The notes: a model not told the origin generated them from the sequence alone. Shown: positions 10,851 through 64,000, counted from the stretch's first letter. The stretch is DNA of 64,000 bases from Acidobacteriota bacterium (GCA_022821775.1 JAJECY010000107.1:861-64860), one strand, 5' to 3'. Translations and numbers: made by a program.

Positions 10851-11942
10851 ATGCGCTTTTTTCTTCTGCTGCTGAGTTGGGCAGTGCTCTCCTCCGGCAT
10901 GCTGGCCGAAGACGCCGCGACCTTTACACCCCGCTCGCTAGCCGTTCGGTCCGACGGAACGCTGATCATCAGCGACGACGTCAGTTACCGGATCCTGGGC
11001 TTGGAACCGACCGGAGTCCTGTCGGTCCAGTTGGAACGGGGAACCGTCGATCCGGAGTCGGGCCGAAAGGTGGATCTGGGACGGCCGGTCGGCATCGCCC
11101 TGGATGGAGCGGACAATCTCTACCTGACCGACCGGAACACCCACCGGATCTTTCGCATCGACCGCCAGAGCGGTGCGGTGACCACCGTGGCCGGCAACCG
11201 GGAGTTCGGCTATCGCTATGACGATGTGGCCGCCACCGATGCCAGCCTGTCCACCCCCGTGGGCGCGGCGCTGGATCGAGAGGGCAACCTGTATTTCGTC
11301 GAACAGAGCAGCCGGCGAGTCCGCCGGGTGGATGCCAAGACCGGCCGGATAGCCACCGTGGCCGGCAGCGGCAGAACGGGATTCAGCGGTGACGGCGGCC
11401 CGGCCACCGAGGCGGCTTTCGAAGTGCCCTTCGACGTGGCGGTGGATCGCCGCGGCAACCTGTTCATCGCCGATACCGGCAACCACCGCATCCGCAGAGT
11501 GGATGCCGGGACCGGGCTGATTTCGACTTACGCGGGTGACGGGAAAGGCCGGTTCGGCGGCGACGGGGGGGCGGCGGCAAAGGCCAGCCTGTATGATCCC
11601 TTTTCGGTGGCCCTGGACCGGTCGGGGAACCTCTATATTGCCGATCGCGGCAACCATCGAATCCGTCGGGTGGGCGCCAGAAATCGCGTCATTACCACCG
11701 TTGCGGGCAATGGCCAAAGGGGCTTCAGCGGCGATGGCGGCCCGGCCGGAAAAGCCAGCCTGGCCGATCCCTTCGACGTGACGGTGGATCGCCGCGGCAA
11801 CCTCTATATCGCCGATACCGGAAACAAGAGAGTGCGGCGAGTCAACGCCATGACCAAGAGAATAGAGACCCTGCCGGTCAAGGCGCCCTCGAAGGAGAAA
11901 GAGCCGGCCTCGGAGGAGAAAAAAGAGAGCCAGTCCTCCTGA
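10851..11942 (+). CDS. secreted NHL-repeat beta-propeller protein
   Basis: Signal peptide. Five or more NHL repeats (GNLY(I/F)ADTGNHRIRRVD, GDGGPA...) and a C-terminal acidic/lysine-rich tail. Confidence 0.75.
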   Translation: MRFFLLLLSWAVLSSGMLAEDAATFTPRSLAVRSDGTLIISDDVSYRILGLEPTGVLSVQLERGTVDPESGRKVDLGRPVGIALDGADNLYLTDRNTHRIFRIDRQSGAVTTVAGNREFGYRYDDVAATDASLSTPVGAALDREGNLYFVEQSSRRVRRVDAKTGRIATVAGSGRTGFSGDGGPATEAAFEVPFDVAVDRRGNLFIADTGNHRIRRVDAGTGLISTYAGDGKGRFGGDGGAAAKASLYDPFSVALDRSGNLYIADRGNHRIRRVGARNRVITTVAGNGQRGFSGDGGPAGKASLADPFDVTVDRRGNLYIADTGNKRVRRVNAMTKRIETLPVKAPSKEKEPASEEKKESQSS

Positions 11943-27768: not shown

Positions 27769-27813
27769 TACCCTTCCAACAAAGCTCATATTGCCTTGGG
27801 TTCTTACCGCCAA

Positions 27814-30360: not shown

Positions 30361-30395
30361 GGCCAAGGACAGCCGTATCCAACAAGGAGTCCCCC

Positions 30396-41438: not shown

Positions 41439-41498
41439 CGACAGGCGACCGAACGTCTCAATCGGCACAGCCGGGAAGTGGCCGGAAGGAACTCGACC

Positions 41499-47908: not shown

Positions 47909-48060
47909 AAGCAATTGCGATGGCCCATACCTCCCGCCTCCATCATCTCTACCCCACTCTCCGCCTGCACCGCATCAACTACAGCACGCGGCGACCCATT
48001 CGGTCGAAGTGCGGCACTGATCAGAACGTTCGTGTCGAGAACGACCCGCTTAGCTTTCAT
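47887..48060 (-). pseudogene. truncated VapC-type PIN-domain toxin (only about 30 N-terminal residues conserved)
   Basis: ATG overlaps the antitoxin stop (GATGAAAGCTAA). MKAKRVVLDTNVLISAALRPNGSPRAVVDA is a classic PIN N-terminus. The frame then diverges and terminates inside the left direct repeat (...FRLSC*). Confidence 0.55.
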
Positions 48061-48328
48061 CGGCCAGCAATGTTTCGAGGCCGGATTCCGTCAAGCCATT
48101 GGCGGACGCTTGTTGGCCCAAGGCATCCATCGTTGCCGTCAGACGCTCCCAAGCAGCTCCACGAAGGCGTTCATAGTGCTGCATCGACATCATCACGCCA
48201 ACCGCTCTACCTTTCTTGGTCACACGCACGGGCCCGCTCTGGGCGGCGTCGAGCAATGAGCCGAAGCGGTTCTTGGCGTCTCTGGCAGCAATTTCTCTCA
48301 TTAGGGCCATTATAGTTAAAGTAGCCAT
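48050..48328 (-). CDS. Phd/YefM-family type II antitoxin
   Basis: About 92 aa. ISATEAKNRF-like motif (REIAARDAKNRFGSLLDAAQSGPVRVTKKGRAVGVMMSMQHYERL). AT-rich upstream leader. The ORF-track start at 48412 is an extension. Confidence 0.75.
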   Translation of the reverse strand: MATLTIMALMREIAARDAKNRFGSLLDAAQSGPVRVTKKGRAVGVMMSMQHYERLRGAAWERLTATMDALGQQASANGLTESGLETLLADES

Positions 48329-48462: not shown

Positions 48463-49565
48463 TTCACGTCCATCCGTTCCGTGAGCCCTGCGTAATAGAC
48501 GACCAGCACCTCCCCGTTGGACAGGACGGTGGCGTAGGGCAGGCCGTAGCTCCAGTCGCTCATGACGTCCAGGGTTTCGGCCATGTTCACGCCGGCGGAG
48601 GGGCGGCCTCGCAGGACGGCGGCGTGGTCGTAGAGGACGATCTCGGTTTCGGCCGGGAAAGCGGCGTCAATGGCGGGGGCCAGGCGGGCCCGGATGGATT
48701 GGGTGCCGAACCGGTCCACCCAGGCCAGCACCGTTCTGCCGTCGGGCAGGATGGCGGGGGTGGCCGCCTGGTCGGGAAAGCCCAGGTCCTCGGGGTCGGT
48801 CCAGCTTTGCCCCTCGTCCCGGCTGATGCGCCGCCGGATGTTGAGGTAGGTTCCCTCCCTGCTGTCGAAATACCAGGTGAAGGTGACGATACGCCCGTCG
48901 GGGGCCACTCCCGCCCGCTGGTCCCAGTTGAACATCCTGCCGGTCGGGTCCTGGCTCACCGTGTGGGGGGTGCTCCAGGACCTGCCTTCATCTTCCGAAT
49001 AGAGATAGACCACCCGCTGATACCACTTGGAAGCGTCCAGGTAGGGCTTGTTGGTCTCCACGCTCAATGCCAGCCGGCCGCCGGCCAGCTCCATCAGGGG
49101 GCTGGTCACGCTGGGCGGCCCCAGCTCGGCCGGGGTGGGGATGACCCGCCAGGGGCTCCAGCTCCGGCCCCCGTCGTCCGACTCCGACCAGAGCACCGTC
49201 ATGGGCAGACAGCCTTCGGTTTCGGCATGAAAGATCTTGGAGCCGGGGAAGGATTCCCGGTCCACCCACATGGAAATCAGCACCAGGCGTCCGGACGAGA
49301 GCTGGGTGGGGTAGGCTACCCACAGCGAGCCCTTCTTTCCCCCGATCCGGGGAGTCTCCAGAATCGTCGGTTCCGTCCAGCTCCGCCCCTGGTCTTCCGA
49401 CCAGCAGAGCTCCAGGGTGGCCCGGTCCGAGTCCTTGTTGGGACCCGCCTTGTAGGTGGCCAGCACCCGTCCGTCCTTCAGTCCCAACACCATGGGAAAG
49501 GTCGCGACGGCCCGGTCGCTTCCCACCTCCCCCTGGTGCAGGGTACCACTGGCGACGATCTTCAT
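48441..49565 (-). CDS. BNR/Asp-box repeat protein (sialidase/glycosyl-hydrolase-like beta-propeller)
   Basis: GGAGG Shine-Dalgarno 6 nt before ATG (MKIVASG...). Four Asp-boxes: SEDQGRSW, SDDGGRSW, SEDEGRSW, SRDEGQSW. Start may be off by 1 nt. Confidence 0.8.
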   Translation of the reverse strand: MKIVASGTLHQGEVGSDRAVATFPMVLGLKDGRVLATYKAGPNKDSDRATLELCWSEDQGRSWTEPTILETPRIGGKKGSLWVAYPTQLSSGRLVLISMWVDRESFPGSKIFHAETEGCLPMTVLWSESDDGGRSWSPWRVIPTPAELGPPSVTSPLMELAGGRLALSVETNKPYLDASKWYQRVVYLYSEDEGRSWSTPHTVSQDPTGRMFNWDQRAGVAPDGRIVTFTWYFDSREGTYLNIRRRISRDEGQSWTDPEDLGFPDQAATPAILPDGRTVLAWVDRFGTQSIRARLAPAIDAAFPAETEIVLYDHAAVLRGRPSAGVNMAETLDVMSDWSYGLPYATVLSNGEVLVVYYAGLTERMDVKWVRLSC

Positions 49566-49736
49566 GGCGTTCCTCCGGCGGTTTCCAGTACTCACAGTCA
49601 ATCACAAGGCTGCTAGTGTCTCAGCAAGACCCTGAAGACGCAATAGCAATCCTGAGCGGCACAATAACGTGGTGGGGAGGTGATCAATTCCCCGAAAGAG
49701 CGTCCACTTTGAGAGTGAGCTCTCAGGAAATGAGGG

Positions 49737-51059
49737 CTATCCGATCAAACTCGTCAAACGGTCACTCCAAGCGACGTGCTTCCGGTTGCTACTGCGCCTG
49801 CGGCCGGAGGAATTGGAACGACGGCCACGATTGGGCGACTCTCCTCCGGGCCGCCTGCCACGCGCGTTGTGACCATAGGACTGGCGTGGGCGCGGGGACC
49901 GCTCGGCGGCGTCGGGCTCAAAGCCGGCCACCTTCCGGCGCGGGATGGGTGCGCCGATCATGCGTTCGGTGGCCTGAACCCAGCCGTGATCGATACCGGT
50001 GACGAAGGTGCAAGCGATACCCTCGCGTTCCGCTCGGCCCGTGCGTCCGAGGCGGTGGGTGTAGCCTTCCGGAGTGCTCGGCACATCGAAGTTGATCACA
50101 TGGGAAACACCGCTCACGTCTATGCCTCGAGCCACGATGTCGGTGGCTACGAGGATATTGAAGCGGCGGGTGCGGAACCCCCACATGGCGTGATCGCGCT
50201 GGGACTGGGACATGGATCCCTGAAGACCTACGGCTCGGTGTCCATCCCGGCTCAACTGATCCGCCAATCGCCGGGCCCGGTGCTTCGTTCGAGTGAAGAC
50301 AATGGCCGAGTCGCAATCGTCTCCGGTGAGCAGGTGTTCAAGCAGGACCCTCTTATGCCCCTCCCCGACCATGTACAGTCCGTGATCGACGGTGGCGACC
50401 GGGGCCGTGCCGGCCAGTTCGACCACGTGGGGATTCCTCAACAAATCGTCCGCCAGTCGACGAATCTCTCTCGGCATGGTGGCCGAAAACAGCAGGTTCT
50501 GGCGCCGCTCGGGCATCGCGGCGAGAATCTTGCGAATGTCGGGCAAGAAACCCATGTCGAACATGTGGTCGGCCTCGTCGAGGACCAGCGTTTCCACGTG
50601 GCCGAGGCGGAGCACTTGCTGCCCGAGCAGGTCGAGCACGCGTCCCGGACAGCCCACAATGATTTCCGGGTGCCGGCGTAGCGAGTTGATCTGGTTGCGC
50701 GTCGAAACGCCACCATAGACCGTGATGGTCTTCAGGCGTGTGAACTTGGACAGGGTGCGGATCTCAGCCGCGATCTGAGTGGCGAGTTCCCGCGTGGGAG
50801 CGAGCACCAGGGCTCGAGGCTCCGTGCGGCGCGCCTCGAGAAGCCGGTCGAGCAGGGGCAGCGCAAAGGCCGCCGTCTTGCCGGTGCCGGTCTGAGCCAG
50901 GCCCAGCACGTCGCGGCCGGCGCGACCCGCGGGAATGGTCTCCTGTTGGATCGGCCGGGGATTCTCGAAACCGATGCCGCGAATGCCGCGAACCAGGGAC
51001 TCGTGGAGTTCGAACCGGTCGAAACCGGTCGACGCAGTAGATGTGGAACTGGATATCAA
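49737..51059 (-). CDS. DEAD-box ATP-dependent RNA helicase with RG-rich C-terminal tail
   Basis: Q-motif (GFENPRPIQ), Walker [13 protein letters not shown] (LDEADHMF), [12 protein letters not shown] motifs. Probable TTG start with GGAGAA Shine-Dalgarno. The ORF-track start at 51224 is an extension. Confidence 0.85.
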
Positions 51060-51404
51060 TATTTTTTCTCCGCCGTACGCGCACAGGCGGATCCTGTACG
51101 GCAGGGCCGTAGTTTCCGACCCGGACAACAGTGAAGGGTAAGAGGGATTCGTTGAAGGCGAGACCTTGGAAGGATTACTAACAGAGGTCCTGTTGATCGC
51201 CGCTTTCGGGCTGAGCCCGATCAAGGGACGAATAGTTTAGCTGGTATCGACAACAATTGCCACCCGGACACCCGCTTGGAGCAGCGGCAAGAGCTGAATG
51301 GTGGGACTGGGATCACCCTGCTTTTCCCGAAGTACGCGATGTCTTGAGTCGATTGCGACCGAAACGCCACGGGCGTGAAGGTGAAATTCGGACCCATCCC
51401 GGGG

Positions 51405-51490
51405 AACCGTGCCGACGGCCCGGTTGCTTCCCACCTCCCCCCGGAATGGATTCTCAGGGCGTTCCTCCGGCGGGTTTCAGCATGGTCTCG
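51405..51490 (-). pseudogene. degenerate relic of the 5' end and RBS region of the BNR gene (start codon lost)
   Basis: GACGGCCCGGTTGCTTCCCACCTCCCC ... GGCGTTCCTCCGGCGGGTTTCAG matches 49500-49600 (25/26 and 22/24 over the two blocks) with an internal deletion. Translated relic VGSNRAVGTVP versus VGSDRAVATFP. Confidence 0.45.
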
Positions 51491-51644
51491 TACTGCTCTT
51501 GAATCCTCTCATCGAAGAATGCCCGGCCTGAAAAATTTGGTTGCAATCCCGTAGAGAGTCATTGTAAGTTTTAGTCACTCCCTCCGAGCAACATTCTACA
51601 GTTTCCAAATCAAATCTTGCCGAAAGAGAACGGCGGAGGTTCTT

Positions 51645-51971
51645 ATGCCGACTGTCTCCGGTGTTTGCCGAATTGTGTCCAATTGCGCCCCTTTTCGCCG
51701 GGGGCTCCCGACTCTACTGCTACTGCTTCAGGAAAGTGTCCTGCTGGCTCAAGGGACCGGAACAAGCCCGTGGGTCATGGCTGTCGACGAGCTGGCAAAA
51801 ACATTCACGGGGCCATTGGCGAAGGGACTGTCACTCGTCGCCATTGTGGTTGGCGGTTTGATGTTCGCTTACGGTGAAGGCGGATCCAAGAGAGCCTTGG
51901 CCGGCACCATTTTCGGGCTGGGCATGGCTCTGGGGGCTGCCAATTTCATGAAGTGGCTGTTTGGGGTGTGA
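51645..51971 (+). CDS. virB2: type IV secretion pilin, VirB2/TrbC family
   Basis: GGAGG Shine-Dalgarno 7 nt upstream. About 108 aa. Signal peptide plus two hydrophobic segments (LSLVAIVVGGLMFAYGEGGS...FGLGMALGAANF) typical of TrbC/VirB2. Confidence 0.7.
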   Translation: MPTVSGVCRIVSNCAPFRRGLPTLLLLLQESVLLAQGTGTSPWVMAVDELAKTFTGPLAKGLSLVAIVVGGLMFAYGEGGSKRALAGTIFGLGMALGAANFMKWLFGV

Positions 51972-51978
51972 CCGCGAA

Positions 51979-52272
51979 ATGACAGGAAAACGCCGATGGA
52001 ACGGCTATCCCGTATTGAGCCGGCCGCTGATGATTCTGGGCGTGGAACGGCGCTGGTTTCTCTTGAGCGCGACACTGGCAGTGTCGCTTTGGAATGCCGG
52101 CGACTCCCTGCTGGCAGCGATCCTTGTCCTGGCATTGCTGCTTGCCACCGGCCGGCTGGCTTGGAAACAGGATCCCAACATGCTGAGCCTGTTGCGGGAA
52201 GCCGCCCGATCCAAAGTGCGGTACGACCCCGGCAAATGGACGGAAACACCCTGGTATCTGGATCTCCGGTAG
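51979..52272 (+). CDS. virB3: type IV secretion protein VirB3/TrbD family
   Basis: About 97 aa. LSRPLMILGVERRWF VirB3 signature plus two TM segments. ATG 8 nt after the virB2 stop. Confidence 0.65.
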   Translation: MTGKRRWNGYPVLSRPLMILGVERRWFLLSATLAVSLWNAGDSLLAAILVLALLLATGRLAWKQDPNMLSLLREAARSKVRYDPGKWTETPWYLDLR

Positions 52273-52282
52273 GTCACCTCGG

Positions 52283-54703
52283 ATGAACATGAATTCCGAA
52301 GCCCGGGAGTACGGCGGATCGGGAGCCCTTGCCGAAGAAATTCCCTATTGGGGTTGGCTTCCGGACGGGCAGACCTGTCTCACTCGGGCGGGTGAGCTCC
52401 TGACCGCCGGCCGGCTGGCGCCTATGGGGATCGATGGACGGCGGCCCGAACAGTTGGATCGAGTGCTGGATCGGTGGCAGCGGTTGCTGTCCGACATCGG
52501 TCCTCGCACCCGGCTTTACTTCTATCTCCTTCGCCGGCCCAGCCGGTTGAATGAAGTCCGTCAGTATGGCGGCGACGTCGGCAAGCTTTCCCAGCATCAG
52601 AGGCGCCTGTTCCTGGCAAGTCGGATTCGGGAGATGCAGACCTTTCTGGTGTGGTGCCATGACCCACAGTTGAAGTCTGCCGTCAATCGGGATTCCGGCT
52701 GGATGTCCTACGCTCGCAGTTGGCTGGCTCGACGGGGCGGAACTCCTGAATCGGCGTACCTTTATACAGCCATTCAAACCGCAGCCGATCATTTTCGCCA
52801 GCTCGTGCAGGCCCATCGAGCCCTGGTGGACGATCTCACTCCCATCGAGGTGTTGACTCCCAAGGCTGGATCGCGCCTGTTGAGCGAGTTGATCAATCGT
52901 CCCGGCATTCCCTGGGATGGAGCCACCGGAAGCGGGCTCAATTGGCGCCTGGCCCTTTCCGAGCTGGAGGCGGAACGCCGCCATCTTCGCCTGGATGGCG
53001 AGCCGGTCATTCTCTACTCCCTGCTGTCCCCACCCGGCGAAGCCTCTGCGAATCTGCTCAACGATCTCTACTGCCTGGATGCCACTCTGACGGCGTCGCT
53101 GGAATGGAGGCCTCTTGAACCGGACCAGGCTCGGAAGAGAATTCGATCGGCTCGCCGACACTATTTCGCCAAGCGCTACTCCCTGGCGGCTCACATGCAG
53201 GAGAAGGAGGGAACGGATACGGCAATGGTGGACTCGGCTGCCGAGGTCGAGTCCGAGCGGCTCGGGGAAGCGCTGGTGGAGCTCGAAGCCGACGGGATTG
53301 CGTATGGTGAAATGGCGCTCTGTATCGCTTTGCATGGAGACCTGGAAGAGATCGAACGCCTGGACGGCGATGTGCGGCGTATCTTTTCCTCTCATGACGC
53401 CAAAGTCATCCGGGAGGGGTACGGACAGTTGCCCGCATGGTTCTGCCGTTGGCCGGCCCAGCCCAGGAAGCGTCAGGTTCGCACGCTGTTCGGCTCCGCC
53501 GGTCTGGCCGCCTGCCTGGCTCCCATCTTCGGTCCTCCGGTCGGATACTCGACCAGCAGGCACTTGCAACGTCCCGCATTGGCGGTCCTTGAGACCCGCT
53601 GGCAAACCCCCTTTCACTATGACCTCTTTGACGGCGATGTGGGGCACACGCTGGTACTCGGGGCGACCGGAAGCGGCAAATCGTTCCTGCTGAATTTTCT
53701 GCTGGTCTCGTCCCTCCAGTACCGTCCCAGGATCCTGATACTCGACCTGGGTGGGTCCTACCGTTGGCTGACCACCTTTCTGGGGGGAAGCTACCTGGAG
53801 ATGGCTCCGTCCGGCGCGCTCAATCCTTCCTTTCAGCTAAGGCCCTTCTCCTTGCCTCCTACTGAGCGAACCCATCAATTCCTCACGGGTTGGGTGGTTC
53901 GCCTGCTGCGACTGGGTGGGTGGACGGTGGAAGGGGACGACACCAACGAAATTCGCAGCCGCATTCAAGACCTCTACCTGTTCTCTCCCGAACGGCGCAC
54001 ACTGAGCACGCTGGTGCGAGCCCTTCCGAGCAGGATGTGGCCGGCAATGTCGCGCTGGCATGGCGATGGAGCCTGGGCAAGCTATTTCGACCACTCCGCC
54101 GCCGGGCCGGATCTCGATCTGAAAGACTGGCAGGTCATCGATCTGGCTGGGGCGGCGGAACATGACGACCTCTGTGAAGCCGCCCTGTTTTACTTGCTGG
54201 AGCGGCTGCGCCTGGAGTTGGAAGACCCCGCCGACCTGGCCCGGGTGAAGCTCATGGTAGTAGACGAGGCATGGCGCTATCTGCGGGATCCTGCCGTCGT
54301 GGCTTACCTGGCCGAATCTGCAAAGACCTGGCGCAAACGCAACGCCGCCCTCGTCATGGCCACCCAGTCGGCAGTGGATATCACCGGAACCGCCGGCGCC
54401 GAACCGCTCCTGGAGTCCATGCCGACCAAGATCTTTCTGGCCAACCCGGATTTGCCGTCTCAGGCCGGCCAGGTGTTTCGGCTCAATGAAGGGGAGCTTG
54501 AACTCATCAGGGAACTGGTTCCCAAGCGGGAGCTCTACCTGCGGCGTCCCAATTCGACCGGAGTACTGCGGCTGAACGTCGATGCCAAGAGCTATTGGCT
54601 CTATACCTCCTCGCCGCCCGATGCGGAAAGGCGGAGCGAATTCATCAAGCGATACGGGTTGGAGCAAGGCATTGAACTCTTATCCAAGGGGGTGGCGGGG
54701 TGA
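52283..54703 (+). CDS. virB4: type IV secretion ATPase VirB4/TrbE (CagE) family
   Basis: 806 aa. Walker A LVLGATGSGKSF. Walker B VVDEAW. Typical length and position after virB3. Confidence 0.9.
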   Translation: MNMNSEAREYGGSGALAEEIPYWGWLPDGQTCLTRAGELLTAGRLAPMGIDGRRPEQLDRVLDRWQRLLSDIGPRTRLYFYLLRRPSRLNEVRQYGGDVGKLSQHQRRLFLASRIREMQTFLVWCHDPQLKSAVNRDSGWMSYARSWLARRGGTPESAYLYTAIQTAADHFRQLVQAHRALVDDLTPIEVLTPKAGSRLLSELINRPGIPWDGATGSGLNWRLALSELEAERRHLRLDGEPVILYSLLSPPGEASANLLNDLYCLDATLTASLEWRPLEPDQARKRIRSARRHYFAKRYSLAAHMQEKEGTDTAMVDSAAEVESERLGEALVELEADGIAYGEMALCIALHGDLEEIERLDGDVRRIFSSHDAKVIREGYGQLPAWFCRWPAQPRKRQVRTLFGSAGLAACLAPIFGPPVGYSTSRHLQRPALAVLETRWQTPFHYDLFDGDVGHTLVLGATGSGKSFLLNFLLVSSLQYRPRILILDLGGSYRWLTTFLGGSYLEMAPSGALNPSFQLRPFSLPPTERTHQFLTGWVVRLLRLGGWTVEGDDTNEIRSRIQDLYLFSPERRTLSTLVRALPSRMWPAMSRWHGDGAWASYFDHSAAGPDLDLKDWQVIDLAGAAEHDDLCEAALFYLLERLRLELEDPADLARVKLMVVDEAWRYLRDPAVVAYLAESAKTWRKRNAALVMATQSAVDITGTAGAEPLLESMPTKIFLANPDLPSQAGQVFRLNEGELELIRELVPKRELYLRRPNSTGVLRLNVDAKSYWLYTSSPPDAERRSEFIKRYGLEQGIELLSKGVAG

Positions 54704-55557
54704 ACGCAACTCTACTCAGGGAAGGTCCGTTTTTCACCATCGTGTTCCTGGTTGTCTGCTGGACGTTGCTGTCAGGCAGCGCGACCGGAAGTGGCGTGCT
54801 TCGGATCAAGGAGAGGCAGGATCAAATTGTCGAGATCCGGGCCAAGGTACGACATACGACCGTGCTGGTTCTTCCGAAGACCGAGAATATCCTGGACTTC
54901 GTGGTTGGCGACTCCGACTACTGGCACCTTAGCGGGGCAGCCAACCTGGCATACCTCAAACCCATCGCCACGGGTGTGCGAACCAACGTGACGCTGGTAT
55001 GCGCCAGCGGTCGGATCTACACCTTTTTGGCGAATGAGGGTGCCGAGTCTCCGCACCTGGTGGTTCGAGTCGAACGAACCGGAGGTGGGGACGGACGCGC
55101 GGCCGAATCGGCGCACAGGCCGGCGTTCGTTTCCCGCAGCATGGTGGAGGGATACCAACACGCGGCTCGGCAAGCAAGCGAGGCCGCGCTGGCCGCCAAG
55201 AGCGATGCGGAAGCCCGGGTCAACGAGGCAAAGCAAGAGGCCTCCAAGACCATCGATCAATTCCGCTCCAACTATCCGGCTCGCTTGAAGTGGCCGTACC
55301 GTCTCGAGAAAAGGGCATTTGAACGACCGTTCCTGGTCGAAGCCCTCTGGCATGACGGTCAGTTTACCTATCTGCGATGTCGGGCGCAGGAAGCCCCGGC
55401 GCTATACGAGTTGAAGGATGGATCGCCCAGCCTGGTGTCCTTTGACCTCAGCCAGGATGGACTCTATGTGGTACGGCATGTCTTGGGCGATGGCTGGCTT
55501 GCCATAGGGAAGAATAGAGCCAAGTGGCGGTTTGTGGATGAAGGACCAAGACCCTAG
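54700..55557 (+). CDS. virB9: type IV secretion protein VirB9/TrbG (CagX) family
   Basis: GTGA overlap with the virB4 stop. Signal peptide. N-terminal ILDFVVGDSDYWHL...TNVTLVCASGRIYTF and C-terminal DGQFTYLRC...LYVVRHVL blocks match VirB9. Confidence 0.65.
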   Translation: MNATLLREGPFFTIVFLVVCWTLLSGSATGSGVLRIKERQDQIVEIRAKVRHTTVLVLPKTENILDFVVGDSDYWHLSGAANLAYLKPIATGVRTNVTLVCASGRIYTFLANEGAESPHLVVRVERTGGGDGRAAESAHRPAFVSRSMVEGYQHAARQASEAALAAKSDAEARVNEAKQEASKTIDQFRSNYPARLKWPYRLEKRAFERPFLVEALWHDGQFTYLRCRAQEAPALYELKDGSPSLVSFDLSQDGLYVVRHVLGDGWLAIGKNRAKWRFVDEGPRP

Positions 55558-56890
55558 ACCCATGATTCATTGGAAGCAAATGCACTCTAAACCGGCCGGA
55601 GCACTCCCCGGCAACCTGATGACCCGCATCGGCGTTGGGGCCATTGCCGTGCTTTGTGGGGCACTGATGCTCACCCATTCGTTCACCAAGACGAACAGGG
55701 ACGCCGCTGCAAGTTCCGATGCGAGCCCGCAACCTGCAAATCAGGGTGTTCAACGACACCTCAGTGCCCTCATTGACAGAGAAACCGAAAGGCAGGAGCA
55801 GAGGCTTGCCGCCCGAGCCGTGGACAGATTGCCGCGGCCAAGGCCAGCGTCAGCAATCTCCGATGAACTGAATCAGTCCGAATCGGTCCCGGTTCTCCGG
55901 GAAGCTGGGGTGACGCTTGTCGACTCGGATCCGGGACCGAGCGAGGACGAGCTCAAGCTGCGTGAGACACTGCGTCTGGAGGATATCGAGAGGCGAGCCA
56001 GGTCTCTTCGTTCCCGACCGTTGGCCCAAACCTACAGATCCGATCGGGGTTTGGCGGGGAACTCGTCCAAGCCGGAGCCTGGTTCGGCTGCATACCAGCC
56101 GGAAGCTTCAAGGGCTCCCTCTACCGCGGAATCGGAACTGCGGGATGTCGTGGCCGACCTCAATACCGCGCTGAACTCCTTCAGTTCCGATGGGAATGGG
56201 CAGCCCGGCGCCCTGAAGAGGCCTGCCCTTTCAGGTCCTTCCCTGGGAGTTTCCGAACAATCCTCCGCGGACCCGGCACGCCCTTCCAAACTGGTCCAGC
56301 CCTCGGACAAGCCGGGCTGGGAACGAATTTATCAGGGGTCCTTTCTGGAGGGCGTCCTGTTGACGCAACTCTCGGGAGACTTCCCCGGACCGGTGCTGGC
56401 CATGGTATCGGTGCCGTTCTACTCTCGAGATCGCCAGCGGGTCCTGGTACCGCGCGGAGCGCGGGCGGTCGGCACGGCGCGGGAGGTCGCTCACAGCGAC
56501 CAGCAACGGCTGGCCGTGACCTTCGACCGATTGTTTCTCCCCGACGGGCGATGGATTTCGCTTGAATTCCGGGGACTCAGCCAAGTGGGCGAGTCGGCTC
56601 TCAAGGACCGGGTCGACCGTCACTATGTTTCGATGTTTGCAGCCGCCGGAGCCGTAGGGGTGCTGTCGGGGCTTACCCTGCAGGGAATCAATCCCTACGG
56701 CGGGGGGATCCAGGGAATTCGAGCCGGGGCCGGCCAGGGGTTTGGCTTGGCCGCAACCCAGGTTCTGCAGCGCTTTCTCAATCGTCTACCCACCATTACC
56801 ATCCGGGCCGGGCATCGGTTGCGAATCTGGTTTACTTCCGATGCGCTTGTGCCTGCGCCAAGACCCAAGAAAGGAAGAGACCAGCCATGA
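55532..56890 (+). CDS. virB10: type IV secretion protein VirB10/TrbI family
   Basis: N-terminal cytoplasmic and TM segment, Pro/Ser-rich linker, conserved C-terminal beta-barrel domain (RIYQGSFLEGVLLTQL...VPFYSRD...DGRWISL...GLSGLT). Start could also be the ATG at 55562. Confidence 0.8.
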   Translation: MWMKDQDPRPMIHWKQMHSKPAGALPGNLMTRIGVGAIAVLCGALMLTHSFTKTNRDAAASSDASPQPANQGVQRHLSALIDRETERQEQRLAARAVDRLPRPRPASAISDELNQSESVPVLREAGVTLVDSDPGPSEDELKLRETLRLEDIERRARSLRSRPLAQTYRSDRGLAGNSSKPEPGSAAYQPEASRAPSTAESELRDVVADLNTALNSFSSDGNGQPGALKRPALSGPSLGVSEQSSADPARPSKLVQPSDKPGWERIYQGSFLEGVLLTQLSGDFPGPVLAMVSVPFYSRDRQRVLVPRGARAVGTAREVAHSDQQRLAVTFDRLFLPDGRWISLEFRGLSQVGESALKDRVDRHYVSMFAAAGAVGVLSGLTLQGINPYGGGIQGIRAGAGQGFGLAATQVLQRFLNRLPTITIRAGHRLRIWFTSDALVPAPRPKKGRDQP

Positions 56891-57795
56891 AAAGGAGAGT
56901 CGTATCCGTCGTGCTGCTCGTCAGCCTCTGCGCCGCACCCCTCTACGGCATCGACCCCATTGCAGCCGCCCAAAGAGCCCAGATGATCGTGAACCAGATT
57001 CTTCAAAGGCTGAACGAGAGAATGCAGATGGCCAATCAAGTCACCCAAATCAAGCAATTTACCGAACAGCTCACCAAGACGAGGGAACAGATTATCCACA
57101 TGAAGCAGGCTGCCTTGGGACAAATCGGAGCTCTTGAGGAGTCTTTCGCGGAGTTGGTCGCGGGGCCCACCGACTTGGTGGTCGAGGCTATGCAGTGGCA
57201 GACGGAATTTACAGGGTCGGCCAGAGAGTTGGTTGGCGCTGCCAAACGGCTGGCCTCCGGCCGACCACTTCGGGAAAGCTGGAGGAAAATACTGAATCAA
57301 TATCGAACCAACCGGGAAGACATTGTTGAGCTGTTGAGCCACCTGGATCCCCAGGTGGCGGCCCAGGTATCGGACCACTACCGTCAGGACCAGGATAGAG
57401 CTGACAATCGGCGTGTGACCACCTATCTGGTTGACGACTCGGCGACGGCCCTGATCGAAACTGCGGCGAGCGCGCAAGAGTCTCTCCAGAAACTGCGCTC
57501 CAACAGCAATGTCTCGGACACCGCCTTGGCTCAAGCCCAGGTGACGGGTTTGGCCACCCAGGGAGAACTCCTTTCCGCCATGGCTCAATTGATGGCCTTC
57601 GAGGCGGCACGGGGAGCCGCTCGAGACTACCAGGATGAACTCAAGCGGCGACAGCAATGGAAGCAGTGGGAGCGGCGTCAAGAGGCGGGGAGGCTGCTGT
57701 TCGAAAAGCAACAGGCGGTCATTGCCGCAAGCGCCGATGGACTGCGGGAAGGCCTGGTCTACCGGATTCCGTCCCACTTTGGCAATTCACATTAA
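56887..57795 (+). CDS. virB5: VirB5/TrbJ-like secreted coiled-coil protein
   Basis: ATGA overlap with virB10. Signal peptide plus long alpha-helical heptad region. Size and position fit TrbJ/VirB5. Confidence 0.5.
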   Translation: MKRRVVSVVLLVSLCAAPLYGIDPIAAAQRAQMIVNQILQRLNERMQMANQVTQIKQFTEQLTKTREQIIHMKQAALGQIGALEESFAELVAGPTDLVVEAMQWQTEFTGSARELVGAAKRLASGRPLRESWRKILNQYRTNREDIVELLSHLDPQVAAQVSDHYRQDQDRADNRRVTTYLVDDSATALIETAASAQESLQKLRSNSNVSDTALAQAQVTGLATQGELLSAMAQLMAFEAARGAARDYQDELKRRQQWKQWERRQEAGRLLFEKQQAVIAASADGLREGLVYRIPSHFGNSH

Positions 57796-57807
57796 GCCTC
57801 CGGTCCC

Positions 57808-58800
57808 ATGCAACTCCGTCCGCCACAATCGATTGATCCGAACGTTCCGGCGATCATCCCCGAGGAACAGCAACAGAATTTCAAGGCGTTTCTCGACAGG
57901 GTGCTGGATGGCGTTGTGGATGCGGCTTCGCCCGGCATTATCCAGGCGGGCGACGAACTGTGGTTGGCAATAGCCACCATTGCAGTGACCTGGGCGGGAT
58001 TGCAGGTCGCCTTCAGCGGGTCCATCAATCCCTGGGAGATCGTGAAGCTCATCATCGTTCTGAGCATTCCCAAGACCATGCTGCACTACTACAGCCAGGC
58101 TCTGCCACACACCACCTCCACCTTTCCTCAGATCGTGGTGGAACAGGGGATCTGGCTGCAAAACATGTTTGTCTCCGACATCGTCTCCGGCATGCACACT
58201 GAACTCAACACCCTGTTTACCCAGCAGGGCAACTCCATACTGGCGGCCTGGCAGCGGATCGATATCGAAAACCTGTCACCCTCTACGGCATATGCCGTGA
58301 TCACTCAGGCAGTCCCGTCGGTCGCGTTCGTCTTTTTCGGCCTGCTCCTGCTGGCCCTGTTCTTCATCACCTATGCCCAAGTTCTCTGGGGGCACCTGGC
58401 CGTATCCATCTCTATCCTGCTCGGCCCCATCTTCATCCCCTGGTTGGTTTTCGAGCCAATGGCCTTCCTGTTCTGGGGTTGGTTTCGGTCGGTGCTCGCC
58501 TATTCTCTCTACGCGGCAATCGCGGGAGCCATCCTCCGCATATGGGGCGGCGTGGGACTGGGGTACGTCACCACATTGAGTCATTCACCGCCCCTGGACA
58601 ACTTTGCCGCGGTCGTCTACTGGTCGCTGATTCTTCTCCCTCTCTGCGCGGCTGGAATCCTGGCGGCCTGCAAAGTGGGAGAGATGACTTCGTTTCTGAT
58701 CTCAGGAGCCGCCTTCACTGGACCCGGAGGTGTCTCCGCGACCGTTCATTCGGCCGGTAGAGCTGCCAGGAATTTATCGAGAGCTGTTTCCAGGCGATGA
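57808..58800 (+). CDS. virB6: type IV secretion protein VirB6/TrbL family (polytopic inner-membrane)
   Basis: About 330 aa with 5-6 TM segments, a large periplasmic loop and Trp/Tyr-rich segments typical of VirB6/TrbL. Confidence 0.7.
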   Translation: MQLRPPQSIDPNVPAIIPEEQQQNFKAFLDRVLDGVVDAASPGIIQAGDELWLAIATIAVTWAGLQVAFSGSINPWEIVKLIIVLSIPKTMLHYYSQALPHTTSTFPQIVVEQGIWLQNMFVSDIVSGMHTELNTLFTQQGNSILAAWQRIDIENLSPSTAYAVITQAVPSVAFVFFGLLLLALFFITYAQVLWGHLAVSISILLGPIFIPWLVFEPMAFLFWGWFRSVLAYSLYAAIAGAILRIWGGVGLGYVTTLSHSPPLDNFAAVVYWSLILLPLCAAGILAACKVGEMTSFLISGAAFTGPGGVSATVHSAGRAARNLSRAVSRR

Positions 58801-59456
58801 TGTCAACAAAAGACACAGACCGTGAATACGCCGAAATCTGGGGTGAAACCCTCAGCTCCAATCGTCATCTCCGCCTTCTCTCCATGGGGCTTGGCGGACT
58901 GACTCTCTTGTTGGCGGTCGTAGTGGTGCGCCTCGGCTTTCGGGAGATGCCCCGCCCGATCGTCGTGCGGGTGGACGAGGTGGGTCGGGCCGAAGCCCTT
59001 CAGTACAAGGCCGTCGAAGCCAAATCCGACCCTCTCGATCCCACCACAAAGTACTTTTTGAATCGATTCATCCACGACCATTACTCTCGTCGGGCCGCCA
59101 CGGTACAGGAACGCTGGACCCGCAGTCTGCGCTTTCTCACCACCGACCTGGCCAATGCCGCATTCCAGGACGAAAACAGGAAAATTGCGCTGGTGGCCGC
59201 TCGAGTGGCTCCGGAAGAGACCAAAGTCGAGAACATCGTCTTGCGTATCCATGCCAATCGGTCGCCGCCTCATGGAGCGACCGCCGACTTTGAAATGGTG
59301 CGCATCCGGCAGGAGAAGGAAACAGGGCGGGATAAGTGGTCCCTTTCCCTGCAGTTTTCCTATATCAACCGAATCCCTCCTGATTTGATGGTCCACAACC
59401 CGATGGGCATTGTCATCACCTATCTGCAGGCGGATCGGGCTCTTGTAGCGGAATAA
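58797..59456 (+). CDS. virB8: type IV secretion protein VirB8/TrbF family
   Basis: ATGA overlap with virB6. Single N-terminal TM plus periplasmic NTF2-like domain (~220 aa). Confidence 0.65.
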   Translation: MMSTKDTDREYAEIWGETLSSNRHLRLLSMGLGGLTLLLAVVVVRLGFREMPRPIVVRVDEVGRAEALQYKAVEAKSDPLDPTTKYFLNRFIHDHYSRRAATVQERWTRSLRFLTTDLANAAFQDENRKIALVAARVAPEETKVENIVLRIHANRSPPHGATADFEMVRIRQEKETGRDKWSLSLQFSYINRIPPDLMVHNPMGIVITYLQADRALVAE

Positions 59457-59484
59457 CAACGGAACAACCAGGGGACGTACCGCC

Positions 59485-60459
59485 ATGAACGCCAGTGGAA
59501 TCGAAATGCTCAAGCCCTTGTTGCCGGGGCTGGAGAGGGTGCTCGAGGATCAACAGGTGAGCGAAATCATGATTAACGGGCCCCACAACGTCTGGATCGA
59601 GAAGAACGGGAAACTGGATTCCTTGTCCGCACCGGATCTCGACTCCAAGGCTTTGGGACGGGCCGCCATCCATATTGCTCGACCCCTGGGCCTGGATCCT
59701 GCGCTCTCGCCCCTGGTGGACGCCCGCCTGGACGACGGCTCCCGGGTGGCCATCTGCATGCCGCCAGCCAGTCCGATTGTAGCGATCACGCTAAGACGTT
59801 TCGGGGGGCGGTCTTTCTCGACGGACGACCTGGTGCGCCAAGGGGTATTGGCGAAAGAGATCCTGAATGCAGCCGCAGACACGCTGCGGGCACGGCGGAA
59901 CATCCTTGTTTCAGGAGGAACGGGGAGCGGAAAAACGACCCTGCTCAATGCTCTGATCGGATTGTTGCCCGAGACGGAACGCATTATTACCATCGAAGAT
60001 GTGCTCGAGTTGCACATTGAACGCAGCAACTGTCTTCGATTCGAGGCTCGTGGACTCAAGGACACGGTGACAATTCGAAACCTGGTGCGACATGCATTGC
60101 GCCACCGTCCGGATCATATCGTCATGGGCGAGGTTCGCGGTGGCGAAGCCGCGGACCTGCTGCAAGCCCTCAATACCGGCCACGGCGGCTCGTTGACAAC
60201 CATCCATGCCAATTGCGCTCAAACGGCCTTGGCAAGGCTGGCGAGTTGTGCCGCCCAGGCAAGCGGGCGGCTTCCATGGAGTGTGACCTGCCGCAGCATC
60301 GTTGACGGGGTCCGCATGGTGGTGCAAATGACGCGGCGGCGGGGCTTGCGGTTTGCGGAAGAGGCACTCTTTGTAGAGGGTTACGATGCCACCACCGACT
60401 GCTGGGACGTGAAGACAATTTGGAGAGTACAGTCTCTGGCAGTCAGCACTGCGGGATAG
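59485..60459 (+). CDS. virB11: type IV secretion ATPase VirB11/TrbB family
   Basis: Walker [17 protein letters not shown]. Asp box, His box and Walker B ([11 protein letters not shown]) of the VirB11/CpaF family. Confidence 0.9.
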
Positions 60460-60842
60460 AGCCATCTCCCTGGGCGCCAAGCTCTGTGGATGAGCTGCAC
60501 AGTTTGTTGAGATTTCCATGGTGGAACATCGTCCGGCAACAGGTGCACCCTGACCCAGCAATAAATCGGGTTTCCAATGTAAGTTGGCCGAGACCCGATC
60601 GCAGCAATTCTCCCTCGCAACCAAGCTCCCTCAAAAACACAAACGAGCGGTTGAGTTTCCGCTGAACCGTCGAGATCACCTGCTGGGCTGTTTCGGTCCG
60701 AGCAACGCACCAGTCAGGTCCTGATTTCATTCTCTGGTGTTTGGACTTTCGATGAAGCCGACCTCCCTCTCACGGCATTTCTTCGCACAGGAATTTGGAT
60801 GGAAACGGAAGGGTTCCTTCCGGAGACGTTTGGGGGGAGGTT

Positions 60843-63800
60843 ATGGAACGCAAGTTCAGGCTGATGTTCATCGGAACAGGGATCTGCCTTTGGCTGCCCC
60901 TGATTTTCAGCGAGGTCGAGGCCCGAATAATCACTTCAAAGTCGAGCCTGACCATCGACGAGGGTGGAAAAGGCTCCTACACGGTGCAACTGGATGCGAA
61001 ACCATCCGCTGAAATCACTCTGGATATCACGACATCCAACAGCGACCTCCGTGTCAAGCCCGAGGCGCTGACCTTCACTCCCGACGATTGGAACCAAGCC
61101 CGGAAAATCACGATCGAGGCGATCGTGGATGCCGATGCCGAAGATGACCGCGCCACCGTGAGTCATTCCGTTCGCACACCATCGGACAGGCGGGGGGCGA
61201 CAGCCAACCCGATTGCCGTCACTGCCCCAACCACCTCAAGCCTGAAAGTGACGGTACGGGACAAATCTGTCCCCAGCCACGAGATCAATATCAGTCCCTC
61301 CTCCGGGCTCTCCATTCGAAAGGGAGCGAGTGGCAGCTACAGTGTGTCGTTGACCGAGGAACCAACCGCATCGGTGACCGTCTCGGCCTCAAGCAGCCGG
61401 AGCGATGTCCGCGTGTCTCCTTCCTCACGGACGTTTTATGTCGGGACCTGGAACAGTTCTCAGCGCTTTACCGTTTCGGTCGACGCCGGCGCCACCAGTT
61501 CCGGTGCAACCATCAGCCACTCGGCTACCAGCGAAGACTTCAACTATCAGGGACTGACCATCGATTCGCTCCCGGTAACGGTCTTGCAGCCGCCAGCCGG
61601 GATCACCCAACCCCCATCGAATACGACGTTGCTCGTCGGTCAGACCAAGACCTTCTACAGCCCGCGACTGAGGAGCCAACCCACCGGTAACGTAACCGTT
61701 AACGCATCCAGCCAGGACGCCGGAACCGCTACGGTAACCGGATCGAAGAGCTTCAGTACCGGAAACTGGAACACGGCACAGGATTTCAAGGTGACAGGAA
61801 AGCGGGTGGGGACCACTTCAATCACCTATGACGTGGACAGTAGCGATACTCGCTATGACGGCTACGACCTGAACAGTACCTCGGTGACCGTTGAGGCGAC
61901 GAGCATTACTTGCGGGGCCGATGACACCAACATCCAACTTGGCGGCTCTTCAATCCTGAGTTGGGACAGCACCAACGCCAGTAGTGTCAACATCGACCAG
62001 GGGATTGGGACGATTCCGCTTGACAGCGCGGGACAAGGCAAGTCTGTTACTCCGCCTCAGCCCGGCGCCACGGAAACCTCCAAAGCTACGACTTACCGGT
62101 TTACCGCCTCGGGCGCAGGCAATCCCGGCACCTGCAGCGTCACCATTACCGTTTGGCGGCCGCCAAGCGTGGGTCGTTTCAGCGCCGCCCCCGCGACCCT
62201 CAGAAAGCAGCAGTCCACCAGGCTGGTCTGGGCTACCAGCCATGCTTCCGCTGCCTCCATCAACCAGGGAATCGGAACGGTTCCGCTTGACAGTTCCCAA
62301 GGAGGTCGCAGTGTGACTCCTCCTCAACCGTCGACAGCCGACACCTCCAGGAAAACGAGCTACAGGCTTACGGCCTCGAATCCGGGCTATACCGGCGCCA
62401 ATGCCGCCACCGCCACTGTCTCGGTCACCGTTTGGAACCGACCGAGCGTGGACAGTTTCACCGCATCGCCATCGACCATCAATGAAGGCGAAGATTCCAG
62501 CTTGAAATGGACCACTACCCACGCCACCAATGTCTCCATTGACCAGGGGGTCGGCTCGGTGTCCGTTGACGACCAATCCGGAAACACCAAGGTGAGCCCC
62601 GATCAAGGCACTACCTACACCCTCACGGCCTCGAACCCGGGCTATAGCGGCGCTCGCGCTGCGACTGACTCCGTTCGTGTGGCCGTTAACGCCTCAAGCT
62701 CGCTCCAACCCCAGACTCCGGGTCTGACGGTCTCACCCACTACACTCAACATCACTGAGGGAACTGCCGCGGAGAGCTACAACGTAAGGCTGAAAACGAG
62801 GCCGAGCGGTGACGTCACCGTCGCGGTAGACATCGAATCCGGAGGCGACTCGAGGGTTCGGAAAAACACCTCCTCCCTCACCTTCACTACGACTGACTGG
62901 AACAGGGATAAAGCAGTTCAGGTCTCCGCAGAAGAAAAATCGGGGACGGCAACCGGGCAGGCCAGGATCACCAATACTCCGTCCTCGTCCTATGGCGGTT
63001 CTGCCGTCGACGTCACCGTCAACGTTTCCGACGACGACACCGACGGCTGCGGAGCAACCGTCACGCCCACCCGTCTCACCATCGACGAAGGAGAGAGCAA
63101 TGACGGCTACTACGATGTGGTATTGGCCGCGAGTCCCGCGGCAAGCGTCACCATCACGCTCGACCTGGCAGGCGACCCCAGCCTGTCGACAGACAAGCCC
63201 TCTCTTACATTCACGACCGCGAACTGGAATATTTCCCAACGGGTAACGATCGAGGCCGGTGAGGATGACGACGCTTCCGACGGCAGGGTAGCCATTGCCC
63301 ACACGGCATCCAGTACCGATGAGGGTTGTTCCGGCATGTCAATCTCCAATGTGTCCGTGGACATCCGTGACAACGACGAGCCGCCGCCGCTGCCGGCAAT
63401 CACCCTTTCGAGTGACGGGAGCAGCGTTTCGGAACCGGACGGGACAGCCACGGTCACCGCTTCCGTTGCCAGCGGCGAAGAGCCGGTCGATGACCTGACC
63501 GTCAACCTGACTCATTCAGGTCGGGCTGCCAACGGAACCGACTATACGGTAGCCAGGCTGACCATCAGCAGCGGGGCAACCTCGGGTGAAGCGGAGTTGA
63601 CCGTCGTCGATGACTCTGTCGTCGAGGGCACGGAGGGAATAAGACTCATCGCCGGCGCCGACGGCTACCGGGACAGCGCCCCGCTTTCCATGGATCTGAC
63701 CGATGACGATTCGGCAGGCGTGTCAATCGCGCCAACGCAGTTGACCATCGCCGAAGGAAGCAGCGGGACCTACGATGTCGTGCTGACCTCGAAGCCGTCC

Positions 63801-64000
63801 CACGATGTGACCGTGACCGTCACCCACAGCGGGGACAGCGACATCGGCGTTGGTGACCAGGAGTTGACCTTCACTGGCTCCAACTGGGAAACAGCGCAAA
63901 CGGTGACGGTATCGGCAGCCCAAGATGCCGATGCCATCGATGACACCGCGACGTTCAGCCACACGGTTGCCAGCACAGATGGGGACTACAACGGAATCAC
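60843..64000 (+). CDS. giant secreted or surface protein with tandem ~100-aa Ig-like/cadherin-like beta-sandwich repeats (3' end beyond window)
   Basis: Frame 3 is open from ATG 60843 to the window end. Signal peptide MERKFRLMFIGTGICLWLPLIFSEVEA. Recurring LTIDEG..G.Y.V.L...P...VT(V/I)......D..V.P..LTFT..(N/D)WN..Q.VT(I/V).A..D.D..D modules. The ORF is absent from the supplied track only because it has no in-window stop. Confidence 0.75.
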   Translation, partial: MERKFRLMFIGTGICLWLPLIFSEVEARIITSKSSLTIDEGGKGSYTVQLDAKPSAEITLDITTSNSDLRVKPEALTFTPDDWNQARKITIEAIVDADAEDDRATVSHSVRTPSDRRGATANPIAVTAPTTSSLKVTVRDKSVPSHEINISPSSGLSIRKGASGSYSVSLTEEPTASVTVSASSSRSDVRVSPSSRTFYVGTWNSSQRFTVSVDAGATSSGATISHSATSEDFNYQGLTIDSLPVTVLQPPAGITQPPSNTTLLVGQTKTFYSPRLRSQPTGNVTVNASSQDAGTATVTGSKSFSTGNWNTAQDFKVTGKRVGTTSITYDVDSSDTRYDGYDLNSTSVTVEATSITCGADDTNIQLGGSSILSWDSTNASSVNIDQGIGTIPLDSAGQGKSVTPPQPGATETSKATTYRFTASGAGNPGTCSVTITVWRPPSVGRFSAAPATLRKQQSTRLVWATSHASAASINQGIGTVPLDSSQGGRSVTPPQPSTADTSRKTSYRLTASNPGYTGANAATATVSVTVWNRPSVDSFTASPSTINEGEDSSLKWTTTHATNVSIDQGVGSVSVDDQSGNTKVSPDQGTTYTLTASNPGYSGARAATDSVRVAVNASSSLQPQTPGLTVSPTTLNITEGTAAESYNVRLKTRPSGDVTVAVDIESGGDSRVRKNTSSLTFTTTDWNRDKAVQVSAEEKSGTATGQARITNTPSSSYGGSAVDVTVNVSDDDTDGCGATVTPTRLTIDEGESNDGYYDVVLAASPAASVTITLDLAGDPSLSTDKPSLTFTTANWNISQRVTIEAGEDDDASDGRVAIAHTASSTDEGCSGMSISNVSVDIRDNDEPPPLPAITLSSDGSSVSEPDGTATVTASVASGEEPVDDLTVNLTHSGRAANGTDYTVARLTISSGATSGEAELTVVDDSVVEGTEGIRLIAGADGYRDSAPLSMDLTDDDSAGVSIAPTQLTIAEGSSGTYDVVLTSKPSHDVTVTVTHSGDSDIGVGDQELTFTGSNWETAQTVTVSAAQDADAIDDTATFSHTVASTDGDYNGI

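Follow-up and report, generated by a model that had tools for sequence, protein, structure and literature searches.

A nine-gene type IV secretion cluster kept at a conserved chromosomal site after in-place loss of its coupling protein in Candidatus Versatilivorator and its sister genus

The stretch of DNA analysed here, called the window, comprises 64,000 nt of an Acidobacteriota bacterium (GCA_022821775.1, JAJECY010000107.1:861-64860) and contains at its 3' end a cluster of nine genes for a type IV secretion system (T4SS), followed by a giant gene for a surface protein. With a probability of about 0.6, the cluster is a chromosomally fixed, vertically inherited T4SS of mating-pair formation type T (MPF_T) that descends from conjugative elements and serves as a surface organelle independent of a type IV coupling protein (T4CP). 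The genes have been assigned, and the evidence further shows a T4CP deletion in place, a chromosomal site shared between species and strong purifying selection on the genes. The original prediction for this DNA had been an integrated and possibly non-conjugative T4SS of horizontal origin, a view borne out by the T4CP lost in place, the site kept in about ten species, the purifying selection and the ordinary genes found past the downstream adhesin.

The window is assigned to Candidatus Versatilivorator (Acidobacteriota, Terriglobia), a group found mostly in sponge metagenomes, with whose chromosomes it shares 84-94% DNA identity between 40 and 64 kb. The related genomes are mostly metagenome-assembled and their isolate names, as read from the record titles, look like those of sponge or coral metagenome bins; a literature search for Versatilivorator and Versatilivoraceae found no papers. 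A metagenome contig from the European Nucleotide Archive (ENA; L001) encodes identical proteins, runs about 1 kb beyond the window and still ends within the giant gene. The comparison set comprises the 80 best VirB4 loci of this family, taken from species-representative genomes, and VirB4 was also searched among 72,556 plasmids.

Results

Loss of the coupling protein in place

In the loci from outside Versatilivoraceae, a 331-aa gene and a T4CP of 680-770 aa (domains TraG-D_C and TrwB_AAD_bind) are located between virB8 and virB11. This arrangement was found in every such locus with the interval intact and inside the fetched stretch. The window presents at this position a spacer of only 28 nt (59457-59484), the scar of a deletion. 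In the sister-genus genome OZ240232.1 (L009; 82% VirB4 identity) the spacer measures 270 nt and encodes a relic of the T4CP, 64 codons that correspond to residues 704-767 of 768 with 56% identity (E 1.2e-13). In a neighbour-joining tree of VirB4, which has no bootstrap values and takes Granulicella as outgroup, the Versatilivoraceae form a single clade within the T4CP-bearing family; a VirB4 phylogeny had been proposed together with the original prediction and this nested position is its outcome. Because of the relic and the nested clade, the T4CP-less state is derived and arose by deletion in place.

No T4CP, MobF relaxase or ArdC was identified by tblastn of the window, and five accessory genes of the relatives (T4CP, 331-aa, ArdC, 302-aa and 106-aa genes) have no match in the window or in any Versatilivorator locus. 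Mobility genes are equally absent among the other window open reading frames (ORFs) scanned, and no relaxase domain occurs among the scanned window ORFs or the gene calls of the relatives' flanks. These scans for T4CP and relaxase covered the window, the related loci and the relatives' flanks, as opposed to whole Versatilivorator genomes.

The nine genes of the cluster

The cluster comprises nine plus-strand genes (51645-60459), overlapping or at most 28 nt apart, in the order VirB2, B3, B4, B9, B10, VirB5/TrbJ-like, B6, B8 and B11. Eight of the nine were identified directly by profile search, with Pfam matches above the curated cut-offs for TrbC, VirB3, TrbL, VirB8, CagX, TrbI and T2SSE. The genes and the order that had been predicted are all present on this strand. 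The ratios of nonsynonymous to synonymous substitution rates (dN/dS) given for each gene are pairwise values between the window gene and an orthologue.

The two ATPases are the best supported members. VirB4 (806 aa, 52283-54703; dN/dS 0.09-0.13) matches TIGR00929 (1.2e-76) as well as TrbE PRK13873 (1.4e-68), and its Walker A (GATGSGKS) and Walker B (VVDEAW) motifs are intact. VirB11 (324 aa, 59485-60459; dN/dS 0.08-0.11) matches TIGR02788 (6.6e-62) and PF00437 (7.8e-45), with Walker A (GGTGSGKT) and the His box (TIHAN) also intact. Profile searches with these two proteins had been suggested as a check on the T4SS assignment, and both gave matches.

The envelope-spanning components are VirB9 (285 aa, 54700-55557), which has a hydrophobic signal-like segment at its N terminus and matches PF03524 CagX (2.1e-24; dN/dS 0.09-0.23), and VirB10/TrbI (452 aa, 55532-56890), which matches PF03743 (TrbI, 1.2e-38; dN/dS 0.19-0.35). 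The latter gene has alternative ATG starts at 55538 and 55562, the second being the one used by the ENA gene call; its product also matches ComB10 weakly (2.4e-9), far less well than VirB10. The remaining membrane components are VirB6/TrbL (330 aa, 57808-58800; PF04610, 2.7e-13; dN/dS 0.13-0.19), VirB8/TrbF (219 aa, 58797-59456; PF04335, 1.1e-15; dN/dS 0.06-0.10) and VirB3 (97 aa, 51979-52272; PF05101, 3.6e-10; dN/dS 0.08-0.17). The frame of virB3 is a corrected one: it is open from 51961 to 52272, with the likely start at ATG 51979, and a 97-aa gene is likewise called in the sister genus (L090). Another ORF (51996-52286) was considered as VirB3 and rejected. It has no family match, and its dN/dS above 2 with a synonymous divergence (dS) of about 0.05, against about 0.4 in its neighbours, indicates a wrong frame.

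The cluster begins with the VirB2/TrbC pilin (108 aa, 51645-51971), identified through PF04956 (5.8e-14) and with a dN/dS of 0.04-0.15 across all 108 codons. It is preceded by a plus-strand non-coding leader (51481-51644), presumably the promoter region, in which no gene is called on the matching ENA contig and which aligns at 84-90% with Versatilivorator relatives. No site was identified in the leader by a promoter-consensus scan, and the results of promoter and terminator consensus scanning were no better than those for shuffled sequence.

The putative secreted, all-alpha protein of 302 aa encoded between virB10 and virB6 (56887-57795; dN/dS 0.13-0.24) is accepted as VirB5/TrbJ-like on transitive evidence, namely the matches of its orthologues, a signal peptide and its position. 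It has no profile match of its own. Among 24 orthologues, TrbJ TIGR02780 was matched by three (best 8.6e-7), VirB5 TIGR02791 by four (best 3.8e-5) and PF07996 by two (6.4e-4). The gene directly precedes virB6; trbJ sits two genes before trbL. The AlphaFold2 model of the protein alone is all-alpha and of low confidence (pLDDT 59.7, pTM 0.27). An hhalign comparison of the family with one Agrobacterium TrbJ gave no real match, and sequence and profile searches of the PDB returned nothing for this family.

Neither VirB1 nor VirB7 was identified. No lytic-transglycosylase domain occurs in any window ORF scanned and no small ORF with a lipobox was found in the region, where the genes are packed too tightly to hide one. 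The earlier statement that VirB1, VirB7, a VirD4-type T4CP and a relaxase are missing from the window agrees with the ORF scans and tblastn.

Gene order and the conjugative relatives

The core gene order is common to all of the 80 related loci. It is also found in the plasmid pACIX903 of Granulicella tundricola (NC_015058.1), typed in PLSDB as conjugative, MPF_T and MOBF, where a pilin-like gene is followed by B3, B4, B9, B10, unnamed genes, B8 and B11 and then by the T4CP and a MobF relaxase. This order is therefore the rule in an Acidobacteria-associated branch of MPF_T: it does differ from the textbook VirB and Trb operons, as had been predicted, but is not unusual for the lineage. The plasmid VirB4 proteins are at most 29% identical to the one in the window, the best E-values being those of Granulicella tundricola plasmids (pACIX903, 1e-57). 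The expectation that a T4SS would be unusual in an Acidobacteria-like host has to be abandoned, as such systems are common in Acidobacteriota, often in several copies per genome.

The T4CP-bearing family comprises the loci L011-L082 and L089, with 50-73% VirB4 identity, and its elements are known from Vicinamibacterales, Terriglobia and Gemmatimonadota, and also from bins that bear the labels Dehalococcoidia, Alphaproteobacteria and Pseudomonadales. Most of these loci have ArdC close by, either upstream of virB2 or downstream of virB11, as well as a 302-aa gene and a 106-aa gene adjoining virB2. The closest outgroup found (L089, 73% VirB4 identity) contains the T4CP, ArdC, an AlpA-like gene and a primase-like gene, with insertion sequence (IS) elements and a toxin-antitoxin pair nearby. 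No clear family could be assigned to three genes conserved in the relatives, of 302, 106 and 331 aa (examples are L011 8149-9381 and 17353-18348). The 302-aa family has a PD...E-like motif and gave a weak Replic_Relax match in 2 of 15 members (1.9e-5), and PDB searches for it were empty; the 331-aa family gave nothing in Pfam or PDB.

Metagenome-assembled genomes with T4CP-bearing loci are labelled as at least five phyla and can contain three to four copies each (three in OZ253543.1, four in CBDCCO010000007.1). Some of the elements are located on contigs of 50-120 kb named 'chromosome_N', and near-identical layouts were observed in a Dehalococcoidia bin (L031, 123 kb contig) and a Longimicrobiales chromosome (L036). 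Active exchange of the elements within sponge microbiomes would explain this spread, and so would binning errors. One clade of relatives (L058-L080, 55% VirB4 identity) presents two VirB9-like genes in tandem, and no match to the VirB5-like family was detectable in the 1.2 kb between its virB10 and virB6.

Conservation, selection and composition

The cluster occupies the same chromosomal site in about ten species, and the synteny of thioredoxin, BNR protein, T4SS and giant protein recurs across the genus and its sister genus. Each Versatilivorator genome appears only once among the best 80 VirB4 loci. All nine genes keep open frames in 9 of the 10 Versatilivoraceae loci that cover the cluster. 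The exception is one species (L046/L085, OZ242296.1), the only disrupted copy among the relatives examined.

Purifying selection on the cluster is strong, with dN/dS of 0.04-0.35 for all nine genes; the corresponding values in the flank are 0.16-0.32 for the BNR gene and 0.28-0.33 for the subtilase gene. Within the genus the dS of the cluster is 0.2-0.7 and to the sister-genus locus (L009) it is 1.0-2.1. The flanking genes give similar or somewhat lower values, a pattern consistent with co-divergence of cluster and chromosome.

The composition of the cluster differs from that of its surroundings in a real but modest way. Its GC content is 60.2% against 63.3% for the rest of the window, a contrast that had been predicted but at larger values (57-60% against 66-68%). 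The GC content at third codon positions (GC3) is about 0.69 in the cluster and about 0.80 elsewhere; it ranges from 0.65 to 0.72 across the nine genes (0.64-0.72 with the adhesin included), and 25 of the 28 other ORFs are at 0.75 or above.

The giant protein and the region beyond

Downstream of virB11, on the plus strand, begins the gene of a giant secreted protein of beta-sandwich repeats, a probable autotransporter adhesin, of which the window contains the 5' part (60843-64000). It starts at ATG 60843, encodes a signal peptide and remains open for 1052 codons up to the window end; on the ENA contig the protein reaches at least 1409 aa. All Versatilivoraceae loci with enough sequence downstream of virB11 have a giant repeat protein at this position, the sister genus included, where it has 3650 aa. 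The annotation of the complete chromosome OZ242296.1 divides the orthologue (L085 10001-20911) between ORFs of 1651 and 1974 aa, the second of which starts in the middle of a repeat and has no signal peptide. A single gene of about 3630 aa is therefore probable, with a frameshift or an assembly error as the reason for the split.

The protein evolves fast, with 35-83% identity between species. The length of over 1050 aa given in the original prediction agrees with the 1052 open codons; its Ig-like label comes from weak profile matches only: Calx-beta at 26 bits in the window protein, below the cut-off of 27, and weak fn3_6, Calx-beta and cadherin-like matches in its homologues. Tandem Repeats Finder identified no arrays in the adhesin DNA, PDB sequence and profile searches returned nothing for the protein, and the AlphaFold2 model of residues 380-684 was unusable (pLDDT 34.7).

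In the OZ242296.1 orthologue the last approximately 330 residues are non-repetitive and end in ...MSIPF. This C-terminal sequence alone has no match in Pfam, NCBIfam or PDB. The family of the domain gave matches to the autotransporter beta-domain PF03797 in 3 of 15 members (best 1e-5) and to OMP_b-brl in two. Judging from these matches, the giant protein is probably exported by a route of its own, as a type Va autotransporter adhesin. The adhesin had also been considered as a substrate of the T4SS, a candidate downgraded after the autotransporter-domain matches.

Past the giant gene or genes, OZ242296.1 contains Nramp, a sodium-solute symporter (SSF) and a 2-hydroxyacid dehydrogenase, and L086 contains further giant repeat proteins only. 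In the original prediction, a virD4, relaxase and integrase just past the window were named as the finding that would turn the cluster into an ordinary integrative conjugative element. No T4CP, relaxase or integrase was identified in these two relatives within 10 kb past the giant gene.

Discussion

Origin and probable function

In the favoured reading the cluster goes back to conjugative elements of a family frequent among sponge-associated Acidobacteriota and the bacteria around them. The Versatilivoraceae ancestor lost what does not belong to mating-pair formation: the T4CP and the 331-aa gene and, judging from the relatives, also ArdC, the weakly Replic_Relax-like 302-aa gene and the 106-aa gene. 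The nine genes that remain encode the pilin, the VirB5-like tip protein, an inner-membrane platform (B3, B6 and B8), an envelope-spanning core (B9 and B10) and the ATPases B4 and B11. Without a cognate T4CP and DNA-processing genes, such a machine would no longer transfer its own DNA. In the host or in the microbial community it may act as a pilus or contact device, like the Trw system of Bartonella, or as a protein exporter, like Ptl of Bordetella or VirB of Brucella; the exported proteins would be periplasmic or otherwise recruited. By analogy with these systems, pilus-mediated contact or protein export is the most likely function. The adhesin has a probable autotransporter route of its own, which makes a role as partner in cell contact more likely for it than one as substrate.

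The known systems resemble the cluster to different degrees. The T4SS of pACIX903 belongs to the same phylum and has the same gene order, but with 29% VirB4 identity, a plasmid location, small extra ORFs around virB6 and the T4CP and MobF genes downstream of virB11. The T4CP-bearing family of sponge and coral metagenomes shares the core order and the VirB5-like family, and the Versatilivoraceae clade is nested within it; it differs from the window in the 331-aa gene and the T4CP, mostly also in the ArdC, 302-aa and 106-aa genes, and in being often multi-copy or located on 50-120 kb contigs. Bartonella Trw is likewise chromosomal, derived from a conjugative system (R388 Trw) and without T4CP, and in this host-associated bacterium it serves for adhesion through surface-exposed pilus components instead of substrate transfer (PMC6519360). 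Differences from Trw are its gene order, its phylum and its multiple variant copies of trwL and trwJ, whereas virB2 and the VirB5-like gene of the window are single-copy and conserved. Bordetella Ptl and Brucella VirB have kept VirB4 and VirB11, and both function with no VirD4 coupling protein. They are proteobacterial, have the classical gene order and known substrates; Ptl is without VirB5 and Brucella has VirB1, VirB7 and VirB12. A broader category is that of the 'MOBless T4SS', relaxase-less chromosomal VirB4 clusters with or without T4CP, which Guglielmini et al. (2011) describe as frequent and interpret as conjugation systems domesticated for protein transport (PMC3158045). This category is bioinformatic and not a mechanism; what the present case contributes is a relic by which the T4CP loss can be dated, and evidence that several species keep the cluster under selection.

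Several points weigh against a T4CP-independent surface organelle. VirB1 and VirB7 are absent, yet no recognisable copies occur in the conjugative relatives either. In OZ242296.1 (L046/L085), DDE transposase genes lie inside virB4 and virB11, so that the system is dispensable in that species. The pilin and VirB5-like genes are single-copy in all Versatilivoraceae loci, with dN/dS of 0.04-0.24 and no Trw-like amplification or fast evolution. No candidate effector was identified. A T4CP and a relaxase from another part of the genome may still act with the system, and for this uncultured organism the T4SS function is predicted from the genes.

Alternative explanations

That the cluster is still a conjugation or mobilisation machine, acting as a helper T4SS in trans for a T4CP and relaxase encoded elsewhere, is unlikely. 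All mating-pair-formation components, the pilin and VirB11 included, are intact and conserved, related conjugative elements are abundant in the same kind of community, and the use of T4SSs in trans is reported as extensive in the part of the literature source consulted for it (PMC3158045). Such a helper is hard to reconcile with the deletion in place of the cognate T4CP, with the single copy per Versatilivorator genome among the best 80 VirB4 loci and with the lack of T4CP, relaxase and integrase in the window and, in the relatives, within 10 kb beyond the adhesin. T4CPs are moreover generally matched to their own T4SS. A system for DNA uptake or release, as the ComB system of Helicobacter or the gonococcal genetic island of Neisseria, is decidedly improbable. 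ComB-type uptake systems are also without T4CP and relaxase, and the weak ComB10 match of VirB10 goes in the same direction, but VirB11 and the VirB5-like gene, both lacking in ComB, are present and conserved here and no competence genes were seen nearby; DNA release in Neisseria requires the T4CP and relaxase, neither of which was found in the loci scanned.

A decaying, non-functional remnant of an integrated conjugative element would account for the lost mobility genes and for the transposases inside virB4 and virB11 of one species, and chromosomal Bartonella Vbh T4SSs without traG and traA are remnants of this kind (PMC6519360). Decay is nevertheless very improbable given the nine open frames of 9 in 10 Versatilivoraceae loci, the intact ATPase motifs and a dN/dS of about 0.1, compared with 0.2-0.3 in flanking chromosomal genes, over dS values up to 1.0-2.1. 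The window ends inside the giant gene and its far side is not visible there, which leaves room for an ordinary integrative conjugative element with T4CP, relaxase and integrase just past the window end. This is almost certainly not the case, and it is refuted for the relatives examined: Nramp, SSF and 2-hydroxyacid dehydrogenase genes lie past the giant gene or genes in L085 and only giant repeat proteins in L086, the upstream side is conserved chromosomal synteny, and the T4CP of this family has its place inside the operon, from which it is deleted here.

The preferred reading, a surface organelle independent of T4CP, has a bolder extension in which the T4SS and the fast-evolving giant adhesin form one host-contact island, for attachment to sponge or neighbouring cells and for protein delivery without a coupling protein. 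It is put forward only tentatively, as a doubtful possibility; if true, Acidobacteriota would thereby have their first T4SS-based symbiosis factor. A still bolder version, with the T4SS exporting the giant adhesin, is made less likely by the autotransporter-like C-terminus.

Significance

Sponge microbiomes are enriched in type IV secretion genes (PMC5735121), the role of which is rarely resolved. The present case separates two things that gene counts lump together, the widespread conjugative elements among sponge-associated phyla and one stripped, selected lineage. It would show, in a dated and traceable way, how a conjugation system outside Proteobacteria came to serve another purpose, and is a concrete candidate for interaction with the host or with neighbours in an abundant, uncultured group of symbionts. 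The general phenomenon is already well known in other bacteria; the value of this case is that of a clean example with a clear evolutionary record, without a new principle, and of an experimental target.

Upstream flank and other observations

The upstream neighbours of the cluster are ordinary chromosomal genes: PSCyt/PSD1 with DUF1501, an MMPL transporter, a LytTR two-component pair, a subtilase of 1935 aa, a thioredoxin and the BNR protein. Between the BNR gene and the T4SS of the window lies a DEAD-box helicase gene (49737-51224, minus strand), also present in two relatives (L005 and L007). Four others (L003, L008, L010 and L056) are without it, and in these the BNR gene directly abuts the point on the T4SS side. 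In the window, 51402-51480 duplicates some 80 nt from the BNR gene's 5' end (49494-49588) at 84-86% identity, as two direct repeats (49494-49536/51402-51444, 86%; 49557-49588/51449-51480, 84%). The insertion of the helicase gene is the cause of this duplicate. The BNR relic of the original prediction is thus present but does not mark the upstream boundary of the T4SS, being a by-product of that insertion. No integrase was identified in the flanks, whose only direct repeat is this duplicate.

The 1935-aa protein (41478-47285) combines a subtilase S8 domain with a lactonase-type beta-propeller and is conserved upstream of the cluster in the genus, with dN/dS of about 0.3. Between the thioredoxin and BNR genes there is a gene for a PhdYeFM-family antitoxin (approximately 48050-48310, minus strand) with no obvious adjacent toxin. 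For the 713-aa protein encoded at 18432-20573, an exact-sequence look-up gave no record. The protein with PSCyt1, PSCyt2 and PSD1 domains is paired with the DUF1501 protein (27796-31853), an arrangement kept in the sister genus (L090) and best known from Planctomycetes. Finally, two NHL/teneurin-like repeat proteins are encoded at 10851-11942 and 14350-16473; eukaryote-like repeat proteins of this kind are often reported in sponge symbionts.

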